Shown here: positions 8,683 to 61,607 of the stretch, piece after piece
How positions within the stretch are numbered: position 1 is the first letter of the stretch
Layout: every line of letters starts with the position of its first letter
NCBI GenBank assembly: GCA_005779395.1
Contig: SXJP01000039.1
Span: 22,603-86,602 of the forward strand
DNA length: 64,000 bases
DNA from: Actinomycetota bacterium
GTDB lineage: Bacteria; Actinomycetota; Acidimicrobiia; IMCC26256; PALSA-610
Reading direction: 5' to 3'
The notes under the pieces: generated by a model
Databases searched by the model: none
What the model was told of the DNA's origin: nothing
What the model saw: the letters and a program-made list of their open reading frames with translations, nothing else
Program-made: the position numbers and the translations under genes

Positions 8683-11355
8683 TTACTTCGCCTCGGCCCA
8701 GTTCGGACCAAACCCCGTGTCAACCACTAACGGCACGCGCAGTTCGCAGACGTTTTCCATCGCACCGCGCACGAGTGCTGTGATCGCTTCAAGTTCTGCA
8801 TTGGGGACTTCAAACACAAGTTCATCATGCACTGTCATGATCATGCGCGTGCGGTATCCACCAGCCGCAAGAGCACGGTCACAGTCGATCATGGCCAACT
8901 TGAAAATGTCGGCTGCAGCGCCCTGTGCCGGCGCGTTCTGCGCCATGCGTTCGCCCATCTGGCGGATTCGGAAATTGTCGCTTGCAATTTCGGGGATTTG
9001 ACGACGTCTGCCGAACATCGTGGTGGTGTAGCCGTTAGCCGTCGCTCCGATGACCGTATTAGAAGTGAACTCGCGAATGAGTGGAAAGCTTGCGAAGTAC
9101 GCGTCAAGAAGCTCTTGAGCCAAGCCCGTCGCTATGTCGAGACGTTGCCCTAGTCCGTAAGCCTCCATGCCGTAGGCCAACCCGTAGTTGACCATCTTGG
9201 CAACGTTTCTTTGGTTGCTGTCGACCTCGCCTTCGGGAACGTTGAATACCTTGGCAGCTGTAGCCGCGTGAATGTCGGCGCCTCGCTCGAATGCGTCGAT
9301 AAGCCCAGGGTCCCCGGAGAGGTGAGCGATGACGCGAAGCTCGATCTGGCTGTAATCCGCAGACAGCAAAGTGCAACCATCGTCAACAATGAACGCGCGG
9401 CGTAACGACTTGCCTATTTCTGTCCGCGTAGGAATGTTCTGAAGGTTCGGATTTTCGCTAGACACGCGACCGGTGGCAGTACCTAGTTGATTGAATCTCG
9501 CGTGTATGCGCCCGTCAGCCTGTACGAGCGGTGGGAGCGCATCGGCATAAGTGTTGCGGAGTTTCTCGACCTCGCGGTATGCAAGGATCTCGGCGACGAT
9601 GGGGTGATGTCCACTCAATTTCTGTAGTGAGTCTGCATCGGTCGACGGCCCCGTTTTGGTCTTCTTTACTGGAGTTAGTCCGAGCTTTTCGAATAGAACT
9701 GTCCGTAACTGCGGCACAGAATTGATTACAAAAGATTCACCTGCGAACTCATGAATTCTTGCTTCGTGTTCTCTGGCCTTCTCTGCCAGATCTTTGCTGA
9801 GCGAGCGCAAGAAGTCGACATCGATTCTGACTCCGCCAGCTTCCATTCGCCCTAAGACCGGAACGAGTGGCCTTTCGAATTTGTCGTAGAGCTGGGTCAG
9901 ATCTCTAGCATCGAGCGCTTCCCGCAGTTTGTCGGCCAGCACCAGGACAGCTGCTGCATTCCTGCCAGCCTGGTTGATTGCACTTTCACCGCCGAAGTCG
10001 AGAGTTCCGTCGGTTGCGTCAGGCGAGCTGAGTTCAACTCCGAGATAACGCTGCGCTAGACGGTCGAGCGAGTATTTGCCGTCCGCTGGATCGATTAGGT
10101 ACGCCATCACCGCTGTGTCGGCATCTAGTGAAGAAAACTCAGGGTTTCCGAGCCCATGAACAAGCTCTTTCGCTCGGTGCGAGATGACTCTGGCGCCGCC
10201 TTCGAAAATTCGCGCGATCTCGGTGCGCACTGCCGTGACGGCGAGCACATTTGCCGGGATATAGGTGGCAGAGTCCGCCGATACGGCGATCGCGACTCCA
10301 TCGAGGTCGTATCGATTTTGATCGGCCCATCGCGGTTCTATCGCGACGGAACCCTTGATCGAGGCAAGGAGTTCAATCACGCGGCCTGTGTCATTAGCAA
10401 TTTCTACGTCTACGTCGAAACCAGCAACCTCGACAGAGTTCGAGTTCGGTCCTGCAGCGCCGCCAACCGCTTCGATGATCCGCGCGTATAGCTGGCGAAA
10501 CTCGAGTTGGTTGCACAACGCGAGTAGCTCGTCGGTGTCGAAATGGCCTTGCACCAAGTCGGCTACTTCGACTCCTACATCGACATCGCGACGAAGGATG
10601 GACATCTGCCTGTTCCTGAACACGCGGGCTTTGAACTCTGCGAGATTATGTTGTTGCTTCGGTGGCAGGTCTTTGAGGTTTTCGAAAATCGTCTCGAGAT
10701 CGCCGTAGGCAGCGATCAGTTTTGCAGCCGTCTTCTCCCCGATACCAGGAACTCCTGGAAGGTTGTCGGAAGCGTCGCCTCGCATGGCCGCATAGTTCGG
10801 ATACTGCGCAGGCGTGACGCCCGTCCGCTCGAATATTCCTGCCTCGTCGTAGAAGGCGTAGTCGCTCACGCCACGCTTGTTGTATAGGACCCTTATGTGC
10901 GGGTCTTGAACGAGTTGATAACTGTCGCGATCGCCAGTGACGATAATTACATCGATGCTTAGTTCCGCAGCGCGAGTGGCGAGCGTCGCGATCACATCAT
11001 CGGCTTCGACCCCCACGACCTCAAGTTGCGGAATCTGTAGCGTTTTTAGGACCTCGCGAATGAGCGGCCACTGGGAGCGAAAAATATCTGGAGTCGGAGG
11101 TCGCCCAGCCTTGTAATCGGGATACATCTCGAATCGTTCGGTCGAACCGCCAGGCGCATCAAAAATTACGGCGACCAGATCGGGCCTGTGATCCGAAATC
11201 ACCTTTGAGAGCATCGCTGTGAATCCGTACACAGCATTTGTGTATGTACCTGTACTCGTAGCCATGTCTGCTGGCATCGCGAAGAAGGCTCGATAGGCAA
11301 GTGAGTTACCGTCGAGCAACAACAACGTTTTGCGATCACTGTCGTCCGTGGCCAT
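8683..11355 (-). CDS. polA: DNA polymerase I
   Basis: 890 aa with a 5'-nuclease N-domain (LLLLDGNSLAYRAFFA) and C-terminal Pol A motifs (DYSQIELR, QVHDELVFE-type TVHDELVFEV). Confidence 0.97.
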   Translation of the reverse strand: MATDDSDRKTLLLLDGNSLAYRAFFAMPADMATSTGTYTNAVYGFTAMLSKVISDHRPDLVAVIFDAPGGSTERFEMYPDYKAGRPPTPDIFRSQWPLIREVLKTLQIPQLEVVGVEADDVIATLATRAAELSIDVIIVTGDRDSYQLVQDPHIRVLYNKRGVSDYAFYDEAGIFERTGVTPAQYPNYAAMRGDASDNLPGVPGIGEKTAAKLIAAYGDLETIFENLKDLPPKQQHNLAEFKARVFRNRQMSILRRDVDVGVEVADLVQGHFDTDELLALCNQLEFRQLYARIIEAVGGAAGPNSNSVEVAGFDVDVEIANDTGRVIELLASIKGSVAIEPRWADQNRYDLDGVAIAVSADSATYIPANVLAVTAVRTEIARIFEGGARVISHRAKELVHGLGNPEFSSLDADTAVMAYLIDPADGKYSLDRLAQRYLGVELSSPDATDGTLDFGGESAINQAGRNAAAVLVLADKLREALDARDLTQLYDKFERPLVPVLGRMEAGGVRIDVDFLRSLSKDLAEKAREHEARIHEFAGESFVINSVPQLRTVLFEKLGLTPVKKTKTGPSTDADSLQKLSGHHPIVAEILAYREVEKLRNTYADALPPLVQADGRIHARFNQLGTATGRVSSENPNLQNIPTRTEIGKSLRRAFIVDDGCTLLSADYSQIELRVIAHLSGDPGLIDAFERGADIHAATAAKVFNVPEGEVDSNQRNVAKMVNYGLAYGMEAYGLGQRLDIATGLAQELLDAYFASFPLIREFTSNTVIGATANGYTTTMFGRRRQIPEIASDNFRIRQMGERMAQNAPAQGAAADIFKLAMIDCDRALAAGGYRTRMIMTVHDELVFEVPNAELEAITALVRGAMENVCELRVPLVVDTGFGPNWAEAK

Positions 11356-15469: not shown

Positions 15470-16224
15470 TGGTGACCGATAACGAACGAAGAATTGCCTT
15501 CGTCACCGGTGGATCGAAGGGAATTGGAGCGGCCACTAGCTGTGCACTCGCTCGCTCGGGCTTGTACGTAGCCGTTGGGTACGCGTCCGATGAAGTCGGC
15601 GCACGACAAGTCGTTGAGGACATCAAATCGAGTGGAGGCATCGCTATTGCCGTCCACTGCGACGTCACCCGCGTCGATTCTGTCGAGAACGCTTTCGCCG
15701 AAATTGAGCGGACGCTCGGAAAAGTCGCAGTTCTAGTCAACAACGGCGGCATCACGGCAGATGGACTCATCATGCGAATGACAGACGAACAGTGGTCATC
15801 GGTGATCGAGACGAACCTGTCCGGCGCATTCCGCACTATTCGCAGGGCGACGCCAGGGATGCTCAAACATCGGTACGGTCGCATCATCAACGTCTCGAGC
15901 GCGAGCGGGCAAATGGGTATCGCCGGTCAGGCCAACTACTCAGCGGCCAAGGCGGGACTCGTTGGACTGACCAGAAGTTTCGCCAGGGAGCTTGGTTCAC
16001 GTGGCATCACAGCAAATATCGTTGCACCGGGGCCAATCGATACCGCGATGACCGATGGCCTCACCGATGAGTGGCGTTCGCAGGCCGAGGCGCAAGTCGC
16101 TTTACGCCGATTCGGAACACCTATTGAAGTAGCTGACGTCATCGCATTTCTGTGTTCGCCGGAAGCCTCGTACATCACAGGAGCAATCATCCCTGTAGAT
16201 GGCGGCCTGGCGATGGGCCACTAG
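15469..16224 (+). CDS. fabG: 3-oxoacyl-ACP reductase (SDR)
   Basis: TGGSKGIG cofactor motif and YSAAK catalytic motif. ATG 15469 overlaps the fabH stop (TGATG). ATG 15457 is the alternative start. Confidence 0.92.
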   Translation: MVTDNERRIAFVTGGSKGIGAATSCALARSGLYVAVGYASDEVGARQVVEDIKSSGGIAIAVHCDVTRVDSVENAFAEIERTLGKVAVLVNNGGITADGLIMRMTDEQWSSVIETNLSGAFRTIRRATPGMLKHRYGRIINVSSASGQMGIAGQANYSAAKAGLVGLTRSFARELGSRGITANIVAPGPIDTAMTDGLTDEWRSQAEAQVALRRFGTPIEVADVIAFLCSPEASYITGAIIPVDGGLAMGH

Positions 16225-31674: not shown

Positions 31675-32526
31675 ATGCGCCTCGTAGTTACTGGCGCGGG
31701 CGGGATGCTCGGCCAAGAAGTCGTCGGTATCTCGACCGGCGTCCATGAAATCCTCGCCTTTGACCATGCATCGCTCGATATCGGTGACGCCGCCGCAGTC
31801 AGTGCGACCCTCGATGCAAGCGGCGCTGAATGCATCATCAATTGCGCCGCATACACGGCTGTCGACAACTGTGAAAGCAACACTGAAACGGCGTACCGCA
31901 TCAACAGCGACGGCCCAGCAAATCTCGCTGCAGTTGCGCACCGACTAGGCGCACGACTAGTTCATGTCTCAACTGATTACGTTTTCGATGGCACGAAGCC
32001 AACTCCGTACGTCGAAACTGACAAGACCAACCCGCAATCGGTGTACGGAGCGTCGAAACTCAGCGGGGAACACGCCGTGCTCGAACTTGGTCACGCCGGC
32101 ATTGTCGCTCGGACTGCATGGGTGTTCGGTCAACACGGAGCGAACATGGTCAAGACTGTTCTACGTATCAAAGACACCGTTCCGACCTTAAGCTTCGTAG
32201 ACGACCAACGTGGCTCTCCTACGAGTGCAGCTGACCTTGCAACGATGCTCATAGCACTCGCCGATTCAAAGCACTCTGGACTATTTCATGTGACAAACGC
32301 TGGCAACGTCAGCTGGTTCGAGTTTGTCCAACAGATCTTGGCGCTCACAGGTGATGACCCTGCTCGTGTGCTTCCGATAAAGACGTCGGATCTCAGTCCC
32401 CCACGCCCGGCGCCACGCCCAGCAAACAGCGTCTTAGATAATGCCGCGTTGCGAGCCTGCGGGCTCGCTCCCTTGCGGAGCTACGAAGCCGCACTCGCGG
32501 ACGTAATCACCCAGCTAACGATCTGA
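31675..32526 (+). CDS. rmlD: dTDP-4-dehydrorhamnose reductase
   Basis: ATG 31675 gives MRLVVTGAGGMLG. YGASKLSGE catalytic motif, 283 aa. Confidence 0.93.
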   Translation: MRLVVTGAGGMLGQEVVGISTGVHEILAFDHASLDIGDAAAVSATLDASGAECIINCAAYTAVDNCESNTETAYRINSDGPANLAAVAHRLGARLVHVSTDYVFDGTKPTPYVETDKTNPQSVYGASKLSGEHAVLELGHAGIVARTAWVFGQHGANMVKTVLRIKDTVPTLSFVDDQRGSPTSAADLATMLIALADSKHSGLFHVTNAGNVSWFEFVQQILALTGDDPARVLPIKTSDLSPPRPAPRPANSVLDNAALRACGLAPLRSYEAALADVITQLTI

Positions 32527-32808
32527 TGCCGGTGCTTCTGCACGTATGCGTCGTTGCATTAATGCGCGCACGGCACCATCGAAAATCACTAGAGGGATAA
32601 GTATTCGCGTAGCTGCTGAGACCTCGTCAAGAAGCCACGACAGGTAGGCAGCCGCCGAAAACAATGCGACGAGAGCGACAGCGAGGCCAGCTTGTTGGCG
32701 TAGAGCGCTGCCTCTCTTGGGCACCGGAAACCGCTCTGGATCCCGATACAACATCAGTATCAAAAAGACTACGAGCCAGATTACAATTTGGCTTTCAACC
32801 AAGTACAT
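32515..32808 (-). CDS. small 3-TM membrane protein, partner/immunity-like paralogue I5
   Basis: ATG 32808 has GGTGGA 7 nt upstream. Three hydrophobic segments and a basic tail (MQRRIR). It shares its architecture with I1-I4. Confidence 0.55.
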   Translation of the reverse strand: MYLVESQIVIWLVVFLILMLYRDPERFPVPKRGSALRQQAGLAVALVALFSAAAYLSWLLDEVSAATRILIPLVIFDGAVRALMQRRIRAEAPASDR

Positions 32809-32830
32809 CACTTAGTCCACCTACATGTGT

Positions 32831-33136
32831 TCAGTATCCAACCAACTTTCGATTGCGCCTAGCCGACAAGAATATGTCGAGAGCAATCAGCGGAACTCCT
32901 GACACATACTCAAATCCCCAACGGATATTCACCAAATCGATGTGCAGAATCGCGACGACGCCGTAGACACCCGTCAGCACAAATGCCCCAGCAAAATATG
33001 CAACAAACAACGGGAATACGACCGGCAATTTCTCGGGTTTCGAACCGCACTTACAAAAAGGATTGGGAAACATTCGGTCGCTAGTGCGCATCACAAGTAC
33101 GAAATAGCCAAGTAGCAAGATCACAGCGCGCTGCAC
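32831..33136 (-). CDS. small 3-TM membrane protein, partner/immunity-like paralogue I4
   Basis: GTG 33136, 101 aa, hydrophobic segments and a basic tail (SARRNRK). Its RBS is the weakest of the five. Confidence 0.5.
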   Translation of the reverse strand: MQRAVILLLGYFVLVMRTSDRMFPNPFCKCGSKPEKLPVVFPLFVAYFAGAFVLTGVYGVVAILHIDLVNIRWGFEYVSGVPLIALDIFLSARRNRKLVGY

Positions 33137-33197
33137 CTGCCGTTGCTATCGAGTACTCGTTGGCGGGTCACTCCAACTTGCAGTCCTGTGCGAGGCA

Positions 33198-33464
33198 TCA
33201 TGACGCGGGCGTTCGGCGCCGACGGCGCCAGCCCGAAGCGTCCTGGAGAGCGAACAACCCAACTAGCGGAAGAGTCGAGAGTTCAACGAGATACCACTCT
33301 GCGCCCTCGAAAATATAGAAGTACCCCACAAACCACACTGCCGCCGCGACGACAATACGAATACGAGATGCAAGCGGCGGTTTCGGCCGTTTCGCATTCC
33401 AACCTTCGCCACGCCTCACGTTACTGATGATGTCGAAAACCGAACATATGAGTAGAAAAATCAT
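33198..33464 (-). CDS. small 3-TM membrane protein, partner/immunity-like paralogue I3
   Basis: ATG 33464 has GGAGG 6 nt upstream. 88 aa with three hydrophobic segments and tail SGWRRRRR. Confidence 0.6.
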   Translation of the reverse strand: MIFLLICSVFDIISNVRRGEGWNAKRPKPPLASRIRIVVAAAVWFVGYFYIFEGAEWYLVELSTLPLVGLFALQDASGWRRRRRTPAS

Positions 33465-33509
33465 CGCCTGCCTCCAATCACCTTCTGCCTCGAGGGCCTT
33501 CGTGCAGTA

Positions 33510-33686
33510 CTAGTTCTTCTTCGCAACATCTTTGAAGTCGATACCGCCATCTTTGGTTGCTCCTACACCGACTTTCATAGTGAGGCAGCCGTCTGGTTTG
33601 CGCTCGACCGCTTCTTCAAGATCGTTCGAAGTGTCGTTCATCCACGACACAGACAATTCCTCGCCATCGATGGGATGTCGGTTCAA
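33510..33686 (-). pseudogene. orphan C-terminal module (copy A3) of the effector-like family, ended by in-frame TAG
   Basis: My own translation (58 codons, so below the track cut-off) gives LNRHPIDGEELSVSWMNDTSNDLEEAVERKPDGCLTMKVGVGATKDGGIDFKDVAKKN*. This is homologous to the last ~55 aa of A1 and A2. The stop falls before the conserved YC. Confidence 0.6.
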
Positions 33687-33964
33687 TTAGGAGGCCGAGA
33701 AGCGGACCGAACAGAGTTTGCATACCGTCGTTGCCATACGTGTACGGCAAAAAAGACAACCAGACCCGGCGACATCGCAAGTTCACGCATGTACCAATCC
33801 TGGTTTGGTGGGGCGAGCTCTACCGCCAAGAGAACGGGCGCTATCCACGCTAAAGAAAGCACTCTCAGAGGTAGAGGAAGGAACGAAAAATCGAATCCAG
33901 GAAATGAACCACGTGCGAGGCGACTGATAACTGCAAAAACGATTACAACCAATATCGTGATCAT
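33683..33964 (-). CDS. small 3-TM membrane protein, partner/immunity-like paralogue I2
   Basis: ATG 33964 is preceded by TAGGAG, which overlaps the A2 stop. 93 aa with three hydrophobic segments and tail HVWQRRY. Confidence 0.6.
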   Translation of the reverse strand: MITILVVIVFAVISRLARGSFPGFDFSFLPLPLRVLSLAWIAPVLLAVELAPPNQDWYMRELAMSPGLVVFFAVHVWQRRYANSVRSASRPPN

Positions 33965-33976
33965 TGCTTGCTTCTC

Positions 33977-34435
33977 CTAGTCCTCCTGCGCGATGGCTTT
34001 GGCGCAATAAGTGTTTTTGCGGCCGACATCATTGAAATCAATTCCCCCATCAATCGCGGCACCAGGGCCAGCCTTCATCGTCAAGCAGCCGTCCGGTTTG
34101 CGACCGATTGCCTCCATCACGTTCTTCGTTATGTCCTTCTTCCACCAGTCCCATTACGTGAAACACAATGCAGCAATCGCCGCTGCGATAGCGATTGCGA
34201 GCCCCGCCGAGGCGGCCGCCGTAGCGACTCCGAGCACGATGGATATCAGCACACAAGCTCTCGAAATCACGTCCCCAATAGTCGTGGCACCCTCGAGGTG
34301 GCGATGGAAATATGCAGTGAACCTAGGGCTGAAGTAGACGGTGCCTGTTGTCCAACCGGCGTTGAAATACCAGCCGTAACCCCAGATCGTGTCACCGACT
34401 TGCAGGCCCATTGGCTTTCCGACTGTCGGCATCAC
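33977..34435 (-). pseudogene. effector-like paralogue A2, 5'-truncated and interrupted by in-frame TAA (34154-34156)
   Basis: The track ORF 34154-34435 plus my translation of 33977-34153 in the same frame reads ...AAIAALCFT*WDWWKKDITKNVMEAIGRKPDGCLTMKAGPGAAIDGGIDFNDVGRKNTYCAKAIAQED*. This is collinear with A1. Confidence 0.7.
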
Positions 34436-34538
34436 TCCGTGGCCCTTGTTCGCAATTCCTCTACCAACTCGCGTTCTGCGAGGTGCCTAATTGCCAGAAA
34501 TCGTAAAAACGCGAGCGGTACCCACATGGCGGTCCTTA

Positions 34539-34832
34539 CTAGCTCGCAGCCGCCACTGCGCGAGCGGCGGCACTCAACGATCTCAAATATCGACGACGCC
34601 AGGTGTCGATCGCTACAAAGAACAGCGCCGCGGGCACTAGCGACAGGTTCTGTGGCAACGAATCAGAATTGTCCGCGAGCCACGGCGGAATTCCGATCAT
34701 CAACAAGAAGGCGACAACGTTCGGCAATTCACTCAGGCGCCAAGAAGCGAGCGAATAGTCGACGATTGGCTTGTCACGCTCCAACCACCGTCGCAGTGCG
34801 AGAAAACCTAAAAATGCATAGACGACGTACAT
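34539..34832 (-). CDS. small 3-TM membrane protein, partner/immunity-like paralogue I1
   Basis: ATG 34832 is preceded by GAGGAGG, which overlaps the A1 stop. 97 aa with three hydrophobic segments and tail DTWRRRY. Confidence 0.65.
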   Translation of the reverse strand: MYVVYAFLGFLALRRWLERDKPIVDYSLASWRLSELPNVVAFLLMIGIPPWLADNSDSLPQNLSLVPAALFFVAIDTWRRRYLRSLSAAARAVAAAS

Positions 34833-34843
34833 ATCTTTCCTCC

Positions 34844-35413
34844 TCAGCCTTCCTGATTCTTCGCTTCGGTGCAGTACTTGTTTTTTCTTGCTACGTCGTT
34901 GAAGTCAATGCCGCCGTTGTCGGCTGTGCCATAACCGACCTTCATCGTGAGACATCCGTCTGGTTTCCGGGCAATAGCTTGCTCAATATTGTTTGAAATG
35001 TCATCAGTCCACCAGTCCCATACGAAACCGCACACTGCGCCTAAAACGCCCGCGACGATCGCGGCGGCCCCTCCCTTGCTAGCTACGAGCCCGGACAGCC
35101 ATAGGCAAACATTCATAACCTTGTTCGCGATTTCGAGTTCGTCGTCAAGACTGCGCTCTAAGTAGGCAGTGAATCGTGGGCTGAAGTAAACGGTTGCACT
35201 GATCCAACCGGCGTTGAAATACCAGCCGTAGCTCCAGATTGCGTTCCCGACTTGTAGGCCCATTGGCTGCGGTCGTGCGGGATACTCACCTTGTCCCTTA
35301 TTGCGAGCGGCGCCGCCCGCAGTTGCATCAACCGAGATCTCCTCACTCGCTACGCCCGCTACCGCTGATTCACGTGAGAGAGAGAAAGTCTGCTCGACTT
35401 TCATCTGGTGCAA
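34844..35413 (-). CDS. effector-like protein A1 (uncharacterised family: W/Y/G-rich N-domain, Gly/Ala-rich hydrophobic hairpin, WDWW, Cys-pair C-domain)
   Basis: 189-aa ORF (TTG 35413 / ATG 35404, no SD). It is the only copy without an internal stop and has paralogues at 33977-34435 and 33510-33686. I recognise no named family. Confidence 0.65.
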   Translation of the reverse strand: MHQMKVEQTFSLSRESAVAGVASEEISVDATAGGAARNKGQGEYPARPQPMGLQVGNAIWSYGWYFNAGWISATVYFSPRFTAYLERSLDDELEIANKVMNVCLWLSGLVASKGGAAAIVAGVLGAVCGFVWDWWTDDISNNIEQAIARKPDGCLTMKVGYGTADNGGIDFNDVARKNKYCTEAKNQEG

Positions 35414-35483
35414 CTAACAAACACCCGGTTGCTGCAACTGTTGCAGCAAGAGTTCGTGCAACATATTTCTTTAGACAATTCAT
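35370..35483 (-). other. 37-codon leader ORF encoding a Sec/lipoprotein-type signal peptide, out of frame (+1) with A1
   Basis: GGAG lies 8 nt upstream of ATG 35483, which opens MNCLKKYVARTLAATVAATGCLLVAPDESRADFLSLT*. The ORF overlaps the A1 ORF by 44 nt. Confidence 0.45.
35376..35385 (-). repeat. (TC)5 dinucleotide tract on the coding strand (GAGAGAGAGA on the plus strand)
   Basis: Read directly from the sequence. It lies inside the 41-nt window in which a net +2/-1 nt change would fuse the leader ORF to A1. Confidence 0.9.
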
Positions 35484-35515
35484 TTAGACATCTCCAACCT
35501 GTTCGGTCCCCGCGG

Positions 35516-35558
35516 ATCTGACAAGCGGAAGTTTATCAGGCAATAGACAGATTGTCTA
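35516..35558 (-). promoter_or_regulatory. candidate promoter (TTGCCT-16 nt-TCAGAT) abutted by palindrome TAGACAgatTGTCTA
   Basis: The -35-like and -10-like hexamers lie upstream of the leader ORF on the minus strand. A perfect 6+6 palindrome at 35544-35558 sits directly next to the -35 element. The same TAGACA half-site recurs at 35472-35477 and 35485-35490. Confidence 0.25.
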
Positions 35559-35621
35559 GGACAAAATGGTTAGGAGCTGGGCTTCAGAAGGCGCGTAGCG
35601 AGGCAGCGCCACGCTCACTAG

Positions 35622-36821
35622 TTACAGGCGGGCGACTATCGCTTCAGCGAACTCAGAGCACTTGACCTCTGTTGCGCCGTCCATCTGACGGGCAAAGTCA
35701 TAGGTAACAATCTTGTCGGCGATGGTCGCCTCGAGAGCTCTGATGATGTCGTCTGCAGCGCCTTGCCAACCGAGATGCTCAAACATCATCACGCCAGACA
35801 GAATCACTGATCCTGGATTCACTTTGTCTTGACCGGCGTACTTGGGTGCTGTGCCGTGCGTCGCCTCGAAAATCGCGTGGCCGGTCACATAGTTGATGTT
35901 GCCACCAGGGGCGATGCCGATACCACCAACTTGGGCTGCGAGCGCATCTGACAGGTAGTCGCCATTCAGGTTCGTTGTGGCGATCACTTCGAACTCGGTT
36001 GGGCGCGTAAGAACTTGCTGCAATGTGATGTCGGCGATGCTGTCCTTCACCAAGATCTTGTCGCCTCGTTCACCGTTGCAGTCGTCCCAACCAACAGCAA
36101 CATCGGAGAACTCTTCGCGGACGAGCTCATAGCCCCACTTGGCGAATGCGCCTTCTGTGAACTTCTGGATGTTGCCCTTGTGCACGATCGTGACGCTCTT
36201 GCGGTTATTCGCAACGGCATACTCGATCGCTGCGCGGATAAGGCGCTTCGAGCCAGTAACCGATACTGGTTTGATGCCGATACCGCTATCGGTACGAATA
36301 TCCCAGCCGAAATCGCTCTTCAATAGAGCGATGAGCTTGGCTGCCTCTGGAGTGCCCTGCTCTACCTCGAGGCCAGCGTAAATGTCTTCTGTGTTCTCAC
36401 GAAAGATCACCATGTCGACAAGGTCCGGGCGCTTTACCGGCGAAGGCACACCTGTAAACCAGCGCACTGGTCGCAGGCAAACGTACAGGTCTAAAATCTG
36501 ACGCAAAGCAACATTGAGGCTGCGGATACCGCCACCTATCGGAGTTGTAAGCGGGCCTTTGATGCCGATCAGGTACTCGCGAAACGCCGCGACAGTTTTA
36601 TCGGGAAGCCACGAACCTGTGGCGTCAAATGCCTTCTGACCGGCTAGAACTTCTTTCCAAGCGATCGATTTGCCGTGCTTCTTAGCTGCCGCATCGAGCA
36701 CAAGTTTCGCTGCTGGCCAGATGTCGACACCTGTACCGTCGCCTTCGACGAATGGAATAATGGGCTCGTCCGGAACCCACAACTTGCCGTCGGCTCCCAT
36801 CGTGATCTTTTCAGCGGTCAT
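35622..36821 (-). CDS. icd: isocitrate dehydrogenase (NADP-dependent, homodimeric type)
   Basis: 399 aa with IDH/IPMDH blocks [19 protein letters not shown] and [23 protein letters not shown]. Confidence 0.95.
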
Positions 36822-60035: not shown

Positions 60036-61607
60036 ATGGAGTTCAATCTTGCTGACCTTTGGGAAAAGGTCGCCGACACAATCCCCGAAAAGCAAGCGCT
60101 AGCAGACGGGAGTCGCCGCTTCACGTACGCCGCCCTTGACGCTCGCGCGAACGCGTTGGCTCATGTCCTTGAGCGTCGGGGCGTAAAAGCTGGCGACCAC
60201 ATCGGCGTGTATCTCTACAACTGTTCGGAGTACATAGAGACGATGCTGGCTGCATTCAAGTTGCGTGCCGTTCCGATCAATGTCAATTATCGATACGTCG
60301 AAGACGAACTTAGGTACCTGTTCACCGATGCAGATGCGGTTGCTCTAGTCGCCGATGTTGCATTCGCACCCAAGATCTCCGCAATCCGATACGAACTACC
60401 GCTGCTGCACACCGTGATTACCGTTGGGGCCGATGGAGATTATGAGTCTCTTATCGCCAGCGAGTCGAGTAGCCGCGACTTCGGACCTCGGTCAGCCGAC
60501 GACCACTACATGCTCTACACGGGTGGCACTACCGGCATGCCGAAAGGTGTCATTTGGCGCCACCAAGATGTGTTCTTTGGCGCTATGGGCGGCGCAGGCG
60601 GCGGGAGCACGCCAATAGCCACACCGGAGGAAATCAGCCAACGTTGCGTCGAAGGTAGGACCCGCGTTGTTCCTGCGTGCCCTTTCATGCATGGCACCGC
60701 GCACTGGATGGCGCTCTCCACCCTTTTCGTCGGTGGCGCGGTGATTATCGATCAGAACCGCAACTTCAATCCTGCGGCGCTTTGGAGACTCATCGCAGAC
60801 GAAGCCGCTACCTTCCTTGTCATCGTTGGCGATGCCTTCGCGCGGCCGCTAGTAGAAGCGATAGACGCAGACGTCGATCTGTCCTCATTGCAGGTACTGC
60901 TTTCTGGCGGAGCGATCCTCAGTCCGGCCATCAAGGAGGCACTTGTCGATGTCCTGCCGGGAGTGATAATCGTCGATGGTTACGGCGCCTCAGAGACCGG
61001 TGGTCAAGGTCAGTCAGTCACCGTCGGAGGAAGCGCTGTCCCTGCCTCGACGCGCTTTACCGTGAACGGCCAGACCATGGTCCTTGATGATGATCTGAAC
61101 CCAGCAAAAGTTGGTGTCGTGGGTCGACTTGCTCGCCGCGGACACATACCGCTCGGTTACTACAAAGACCCAGAAAAGACAGCTGCGACTTTCCCGACCG
61201 ACGCGAATGGCGATCGCTGGTCTGTGCCCGGCGACCACGCACGCCTCGAGGAAGACGGCAACATCACCCTGCTCGGTCGCGGCTCGATGTCGATCAACAC
61301 AGGTGGCGAAAAGGTCTACCCTGAAGAAATTGAGTCGGCACTCAAGTCACATCCGACAGTTTTTGACGCAGTCGTCGTCGGCGTGCCAGACGAACGTTTC
61401 GGCGAACGCGTAGTAGCAGTCGTGCAAGCACGCGAATCGTTGGACCTAGAACCATCTGCTCTCATGAATCATGTTCGCCTCAATGCCGCCGCGTACAAAG
61501 CGCCACGTTCGATCATTCCCGTTGAGAACATTCAGCGTTTGCCATCTGGCAAGCCGGACTATCGCTGGGCGCGCACGACAGCGATGAACGCCCTCGGCCT
61601 CGCTTAG
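60036..61607 (+). CDS. AMP-dependent acyl-CoA synthetase/ligase (FadD-like)
   Basis: AMP-binding motif [12 protein letters not shown], with GYGASETG and a C-terminal SGKPDYR block. ATG 60036 is preferred over the longer track ORF. Confidence 0.88.

Follow-up and report, generated by a model that had tools for sequence, protein, structure and literature searches.

The 64 000-nt stretch of DNA analysed here (the window: positions 22 603–86 602, forward strand, of contig SXJP01000039.1, assembly GCA_005779395.1) comes from an uncultured environmental member of the Actinomycetota. On its minus strand it carries a short leader open reading frame (ORF) with the features of a signal peptide and, in another frame, the body of a putative exported protein, A1. 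We conclude with high confidence that the leader and A1 are the two parts of one split gene and that the lesion between them, located at a TC dinucleotide tract, arose by slippage. That the tract is in addition a functioning, reversible ON/OFF (contingency) switch is the best single explanation of the observed pattern, and one for which we find the balance of belief to be even.

The leader ORF (35370–35483, minus strand) has 37 codons and forms the true 5′ end of the gene, as indicated by its own sequence, by the leader of a paralogue and by the homologue P0008 (see below). It opens at ATG 35483, preceded by the Shine–Dalgarno (SD) sequence GGAG (35495–35492, minus strand) and an 8-nt spacer (ATGTCTAA). 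It encodes MNCLKKYVARTLAATVAATGCLLVAPDESRADFLSLT and ends, in the present (OFF) frame, at the stop codon TGA 35370–35372. About 47 nt 5′ of the ATG lies a sigma-70-like promoter match (35530–35558, minus strand) composed of TAGACA, a 17-nt spacer and a TG-extended TAAACT; it is a match to the consensus only, and the sole promoter-like match in the region 32400–35700. Its −35 hexamer is contained in a perfect 15-nt palindrome, TAGACAATCTGTCTA (35544–35558, minus strand), which is a candidate repressor operator of the cassette.

The leader was classified as a signal peptide by inspection and a hydropathy scan. It shows the pattern expected of a Sec/signal-peptidase-I substrate, with a basic n-region (MNCLKKYVAR), a hydrophobic region with a core of about 15 residues (TLAATVAATGCLLVA) and a final segment (PDESRA) with small residues at positions −3 and −1. 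The S-x-A cleavage motif, at residues 29–31, is found in both copies of the gene, as SRA in the window and SQA in the paralogue. A lipoprotein signal, suggested in the initial annotation of this DNA by a lipobox-like A-T-G-C, was rejected. The paralogue has G-A-T-C at this place, so the motif is not conserved, and Thr at −1 is disallowed in a lipobox; the window motif fits a loose PROSITE-type pattern only and fails [LVI][ASTVI][GAS]-C. The Cys itself lies within a conserved hydrophobic block, CLLVAP, and it is the signal-peptidase-I motif that is conserved instead.

The frame-switch site is a 12-nt tract, TT(TC)5 (35376–35387, minus strand). The plus strand at 35376–35385 reads GAGAGAGAGA, corresponding to (TC)5 on the coding strand, where it is preceded by TT. 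The tract starts at codon 33 of the gene, one residue past the predicted signal-peptidase site, and the paralogue carries (TC)6 at the same codon. Gain or loss of TC units at this position would alter just the first residues of the mature protein.

The A1 body, that is the predicted mature protein (34844–35375, minus strand), lies in the +1 frame relative to the leader. As listed, the A1 ORF spans 34844–35413: it has a TTG start at 35413 and an internal ATG at 35404, neither preceded by an SD sequence, and overlaps the leader ORF by 44 nt. Its frame is closed immediately upstream by TAG 35414–35416. A1 begins with a variable linker, which is followed by a conserved aromatic block (YGWYFNxGW..YFSPRFTAYLER), a hydrophobic stretch rich in Gly and Ala and, at the C-terminus, a two-Cys unit (PDGCL...NKYC); it is intact except for the tract lesion. 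In silico, the addition of one TC unit to the window copy yields a continuous leader–body protein of 213 aa, and the removal of one nucleotide yields 212 aa. This is close to the precursor of about 215 aa proposed in the initial annotation, in which the positions of the SD sequence, spacer, start codon, leader ORF, stop, tract, A1 frame and overlap were likewise all correct when the sequence was read again.

Two comparisons, with a paralogue in the same genome and with an in-frame homologue, strongly support the view that a single gene for a secreted protein has been broken at the TC tract into leader and A1. A search of the conceptual fusion against about 5.8 billion protein clusters returned two relatives only. 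The first, P0001, is 99 per cent identical and represents the same locus in the metagenome-assembled genome (MAG) GCA_005790985.1; it is called from the internal ATG and carries the same frameshift. The second, P0002, is a paralogue encoded on another contig of this MAG, 40 per cent identical by BLASTP and 48 per cent after frame correction.

The DNA of the paralogue repeats the organization seen in the window: AGGAG, an 8-nt spacer, ATG, a leader ORF (MMHFSKNLARVLVVTVIGATCLLVAPEPSQAQSLSLSQMRQW), (TC)6 in place of TT(TC)5, and the body in another frame. A promoter-like site, TTGACA-17-TAATAT, is found at an equivalent distance (about 47 nt) from the leader ATG; this consensus match is the only one of its kind at the locus. 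The block from the SD sequence to the ATG (GGAGATGTCTAAATGA in the window, GGAGATGTGTAAATGA in the paralogue) is identical at 15 of 16 positions. The paralogue leader can be divided in the same way as that of the window, into MMHFSKNLAR, VLVVTVIGATCLLVA and PEPSQA, and in both leaders 32 codons stand ahead of the tract. At 15 of these 32 positions the residue is the same, and in seven of these cases the codons differ synonymously, as do TTG/CTG, TTA/CTC and GCA/GCT in the CLLVAP block. No frame other than that of the leader is open in both copies. On the basis of the identical residues, the synonymous changes and the single shared open frame, we consider the two leaders to be homologous and under coding selection.

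The shifts that would restore the two copies are opposite in direction: the window copy needs one TC more (or one nucleotide less) and the paralogue one TC less (or one nucleotide more). Removal of one TC unit from the paralogue gives, in silico, a 196-aa fusion. Between Met1 and residue 48 the two predicted ON proteins align with no gap; they are also co-linear along their bodies and are 48 per cent identical overall. Two one-unit lesions of opposite sign, with co-linear ON states, point to slippage of the repeat unit on an ancestrally in-frame gene. As an origin of the lesion, the slipped-strand event put forward in the initial annotation is thus well supported, the copies lying at −1 and +1 unit from co-linear ON states.

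Public annotation of both copies hides the signal peptide. In the entries P0001 and P0003 the start has been placed at the internal ATG 35404, and the first 43 or so residues of P0002 (MTRRCVNDAFFKEPCASTCCNSNRGYLSARCSRTKSSAI...) are an out-of-frame reading of the signal-peptide region (positions 10001–10130 of the paralogue locus, L001).

A profile search of 1.84 billion representative proteins returned the genome's own copies and one further member of the family, P0008 (E = 4e-5), which hhalign aligns to the A family with a probability of 97 per cent and E = 2.7e-11. P0008, a database singleton, is a single protein of 200 aa with an in-frame signal peptide and without the SLSL motif that the tract encodes. 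The normal architecture of the family is therefore a signal peptide and a body in one frame, and the tract is not required by the protein.

Simple repeats were analysed in the window and in the 20-kb paralogue locus. Each region contains a single dinucleotide repeat of at least five units, which is the A1 tract in the window and the paralogue tract at the other locus. Outside these two tracts the longest dinucleotide runs have four units (window 1–64000, L001 1–20612), and homopolymers of at least 7 nt are absent from the 84 kb examined. The genome is very poor in simple repeats. A first-order model predicts about 0.25 (TC)n/(GA)n tracts of this length in the 64-kb window. TCT accounts for 13 per cent of the Ser codons and, according to codon usage, the probability that SLSL is encoded as TCTCTCTCTCTC, a pure TC run, is about 0.002. 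The tract region is identical at 11 of 12 nucleotides between the paralogues, compared with 57 per cent identity over the leader as a whole; neighbouring synonymous sites are saturated by paralogue divergence, and a perfect tract is kept in both copies. Selection generally acts against mono- and dinucleotide repeats that reach about 10 bp or more in prokaryotic coding DNA, and the enrichment of such repeats near N-termini has been read as a signature of phase variation (PMC3315296). The present repeat stands out against what composition would predict and is retained in the paralogue despite divergence. Among repeats of longer units, two tetranucleotide repeats of three units were observed, CTCG at 15547–15558 and GTCA at 61009–61020.

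The reading we favour is that a single gene encodes a protein of about 213 aa, exported by the Sec route, and that the count of TC units determines the frame of this gene. The population sequenced would have a tract one unit short, TT(TC)5 in place of TT(TC)6. Ribosomes starting at the SD sequence and ATG would make the 37-residue leader peptide and then stop, the body would be left unmade and the gene would be OFF. The paralogue would be OFF through one extra unit, (TC)6 in place of (TC)5. Slipped-strand mispairing during replication, the most likely mechanism, would then switch a secreted or membrane-inserting protein ON and OFF in a heritable and reversible way. The small membrane protein encoded downstream is predicted to be translated from a ribosome-binding site of its own, whether A1 is ON or OFF. 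Like known contingency loci, the gene has its repeat within the reading frame, and in silico the gain or loss of a unit toggles between an intact and a truncated product. We infer that switching is ongoing and reversible and that selection keeps the tract.

The public assemblies were compared at both loci. The A1 junction, with (TC)5, is identical in the window, the NCBI MAG, the Logan assemblies of runs SRR8894379 and SRR8894382 and the ENA assembly ERZ27257035, and the paralogue junction, with (TC)6, is identical in four assemblies. Contigs were also looked up through the neighbouring genes I1 and Icd, which avoids the bias of a search with the exact protein, and the OFF configuration was found everywhere. 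All the assemblies are consensus sequences drawn from what is essentially a single population, and a minority of ON cells is neither shown nor excluded by them. Between the window and the NCBI MAG there are five single-nucleotide polymorphisms in 20.5 kb. One of these, at window position 35106 in A1, is non-synonymous and lies at the start of the hydrophobic segment, where the window encodes Cys and the MAG Ser.

Several of these results weigh against a working switch. No tract-length variation is observed at either locus across the retrievable assemblies, and no leader-fused (ON) protein is present among about 15 billion public proteins. With five to six units, the tracts lie near the lower limit of length for contingency loci. 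The tract is not family-wide, P0008 having no SLSL, and the array downstream of A1 holds decayed copies, so that the locus may be eroding.

On a rival reading, both copies would be recent pseudogenes in which the TC tract, as the most mutable site, had taken the first hit, followed by permanent silence and decay throughout the array. Fixed inactivation of this kind is a serious possibility, although in our judgement it falls clearly short of being probable. Both loci are OFF in all public assemblies and an ON allele was found nowhere; the degeneration of A2 and A3, next to A1, is plain, and a tiny, lineage-restricted family is what would be expected of dispensable genes. However, each of the two copies has exactly one lesion, at the tract, and their conserved body motifs, leader, SD sequence, ATG and promoter-like site are otherwise intact. 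A2 and A3, which are truly dead, are truncated and carry nonsense codons, unlike A1 and the paralogue. The survival of a perfect tract in both paralogues, amid saturated synonymous sites, also argues against simple decay. Moreover, if the tract is so mutable that it alone was hit in both copies, reversion would be expected to occur fairly often, and pseudogene and switch then become hard to tell apart.

The break might alternatively be bridged during expression, either by a ribosomal frameshift (+1 or −2 in the window copy, −1 or +2 in the paralogue, perhaps with re-pairing of tRNAs along the UC repeat) or by slippage of RNA polymerase. Programmed recoding is classically recognized by a frameshift that falls at a conserved sequence in two paralogues. 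After a 2-nt shift, codons and anticodons can re-pair perfectly along a dinucleotide repeat, and in the window the UUU-C that immediately precedes the tract might, in principle, let tRNA-Phe slip by +1. We nevertheless regard recoding as unlikely. The two copies need opposite net shifts, P0008 needs none, and the leader stop lies one codon past the tract in one copy and six codons past it in the other. Neither switch window contains an X XXY YYZ heptamer, a shifty stop or a homopolymer of at least 4 nt, the generic UUU-C being present in one copy. Folding of the 86 nt downstream is no more stable than that of shuffled sequences (z = +0.68 and −0.91), no structure is shared between the two copies, and Rfam gave no match above threshold at the switch region. 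We know of no established precedent for bacterial 2-nt ribosomal shifts or for transcriptional slippage on (UC)5–6. The +1 ribosomal frameshift listed among the options in the initial annotation is accordingly disfavoured: the paralogue would need −1, and the expected heptamer, homopolymer run and significant RNA structure are missing.

In each copy, a stretch rich in purines 20–40 nt downstream is able to pair with the UC tract: GAGUGAGGAGA in the window (35333–35385) and GAGACAG..GGUAGAGG in the paralogue (L001 10116–10155). Compared with shuffled sequences, these folds are not significant (z = −0.46 and −1.85), and the pairing may reflect composition.

Two separate genes, with the 37-codon ORF as a stand-alone peptide or a regulatory upstream ORF and A1 translated from TTG 35413 or ATG 35404, are very improbable. 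Gene callers do start A1 at ATG 35404 (P0001 and P0003), but these internal starts lack an SD sequence and are not conserved in the paralogue, where the body frame upstream is an out-of-frame reading of the leader. In the window, the body frame is interrupted upstream by three stops. The homologue P0008 is a single protein made of signal peptide and body, and a peptide consisting of a signal sequence only has no obvious independent role. Finally, a sequencing or assembly indel hiding a tract that is in frame in the real genome, an option left in the initial annotation and one to be considered with metagenome assemblies, since repeats are a classic source of indel errors, is scarcely credible: the same junction and tract length occur in at least four assemblies from different pipelines and runs, the two loci would need errors in opposite directions, and a dinucleotide run of 10–12 nt is not error-prone in short-read chemistry.

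A1 is followed by an array of small genes, all on the minus strand. The first, I1 (34539–34832), codes for a small membrane protein of 97 aa; it begins 11 nt past the A1 stop and has its own SD sequence (GGAGG, 6 nt before the ATG). I1 is a candidate cognate partner or immunity protein of A1. It is followed by A2 (33977–34435), identified by three-frame translation and alignment as a 5′-truncated copy of A with no leader, no tract and one in-frame stop (ALCFT-stop-WDWW). A 111-nt repeat with 84 per cent identity connects A2 (34308–34416) with A1 (35160–35268) and, from its sequence, is a possible recombination substrate for cassette exchange. Next come I2 (33683–33964), a small membrane protein of 93 aa, and A3 (33510–33686), a C-terminal fragment of A with an in-frame stop (KKN-stop-YCTK) past which the homology runs for a few codons. 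The array continues with I3 (33198–33464), a small membrane protein of 88 aa, I4 (32831–33136), a small hydrophobic ORF of 101 aa, and I5 (32515–32811), a small membrane protein of 98 aa.

The proteins I1, I2, I3 and I5 are distantly related to one another. BLASTP gives E values of 1.9e-8 for I1–I2 and 1.3e-5 for I2–I3; I5 is weakly similar to I3 (E = 0.012), and I4 has no detectable similarity to I1–I3. Identity is 58–66 per cent between the C-termini of the A proteins and 17–28 per cent between the I proteins. The arrangement of the genes, and this alone, suggests a toxin/immunity-like role for the A and I proteins.

The paralogue belongs to a smaller module (L001 10022–10889; SXTH01000010.1, ENA contig k141_1473662), which consists of the A gene and a transmembrane ORF of 75 aa with its own SD sequence. 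The module is located between tpiA and secG, the latter confirmed by Pfam, and interrupts an otherwise conserved uvrC-rapZ-yvcK-gap-pgk-tpi-secG block. This position suggests that the module was inserted into a housekeeping operon. The order of the genes in the block is suggestive of an actinobacterium.

The A and I proteins have no match in Pfam, NCBIfam, PADLOC, PHROGs or PDB sequences, and in these same collections they show no sequence homology to bacteriocin, toxin or immunity families. A profile search with the I family against 5.8 billion proteins returned self-matches only. Two further candidates for the A family, P0007 and P0009, were discarded as spurious matches to repeats of the ARKPDGTLW type. 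No related loci were found in reference genome contigs. A degenerate DNA pattern of the leader gave 17 matches in metagenome and genome contigs, all attributable to chance: they belong to unrelated taxa and have no tract or homologous body. Two AlphaFold runs produced unreliable models (predicted local distance difference test, pLDDT, 37.6 and 47.4), too poor for a fold search.

Almost all known cases of phase variation driven by repeats come from pathogens adapted to a host, among them Helicobacter, Neisseria, Haemophilus and Campylobacter. If the tract is a real switch, a known mechanism would operate here in an unusual setting and in a new protein family; the strategy would be extended to free-living communities, together with a candidate competition system comprising two paralogues of an orphan exported-protein family. 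If the inactivation is fixed, the locus is one of an ordinary pair of pseudogenes. A further-reaching scenario is one in which an uncultured free-living bacterium uses TC contingency switches at the signal-peptide/mature boundary of two paralogues from a so far unknown exported, membrane-active family, with separately translated small membrane partners, in a bacteriocin-like scheme where few cells produce and all are protected, and with silent truncated cassettes available for recombination. As a whole this scenario is speculative, and we think it probably does not hold in every part. The mis-called copies, one started at an internal ATG and the other given a 43-residue out-of-frame N-terminus, show that such switches can hide secreted proteins in the annotation of MAGs.

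The array resembles known toxin/immunity arrays (orphan cdiA-CT/cdiI modules, Rhs orphans and bacteriocin–immunity clusters) in its order: a full exported gene, a small membrane gene, then 5′-truncated copies with diverged small membrane genes. Classic toxin–immunity pairs co-diversify, whereas here the C-termini of the A proteins are fairly conserved and the I proteins diverged. In addition, the A and I proteins resemble no known toxin, bacteriocin or immunity family.

The layout of the split gene recalls prfB-type +1 frameshifting, where two overlapping ORFs code for one protein and the short first ORF stops just past the shift region. Unlike prfB, the present gene has no shifty stop of the CUU-UGA type, no suitably spaced internal SD sequence and no conserved RNA element, and its paralogue requires the opposite shift. 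In Mycobacterium tuberculosis genes such as glpK, reversible frameshifts in a short (7-nt) homopolymer tract have been shown experimentally. This case is similar in that a short coding repeat causes reversible loss of function in an organism that is not classically phase-variable; it differs in that the repeat is a homopolymer and the product a metabolic enzyme, in contrast to the dinucleotide repeat and exported protein described here.

The closest precedent is oipA (hopH) of Helicobacter pylori, and the same phase variation by CT dinucleotide repeats is known for hopZ, sabA, sabB and babB of this species. In oipA, 5–11 CT units in the region coding for the signal peptide turn the gene ON and OFF by slipped-strand mispairing, and the 5CT and 6CT alleles each occur in both ON and OFF strains (PMC10564699). 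The oipA tract falls within the signal peptide and precedes the cleavage motif, whereas the tract described here starts one residue past the predicted cleavage site. The families are unrelated, the Hop proteins of H. pylori being beta-barrels and the present one an orphan helical-hairpin-like protein, and a host-restricted pathogen is compared with an uncultured environmental bacterium. Tract-length polymorphism is abundantly documented for oipA, in contrast to the consensus assemblies of one population available here, in which none was seen. In both systems, however, a CT/TC tract of similar length lies in the 5′ coding region and the number of its units sets the frame, and the H. pylori genes, like this genome, include several paralogues with the same kind of tract.

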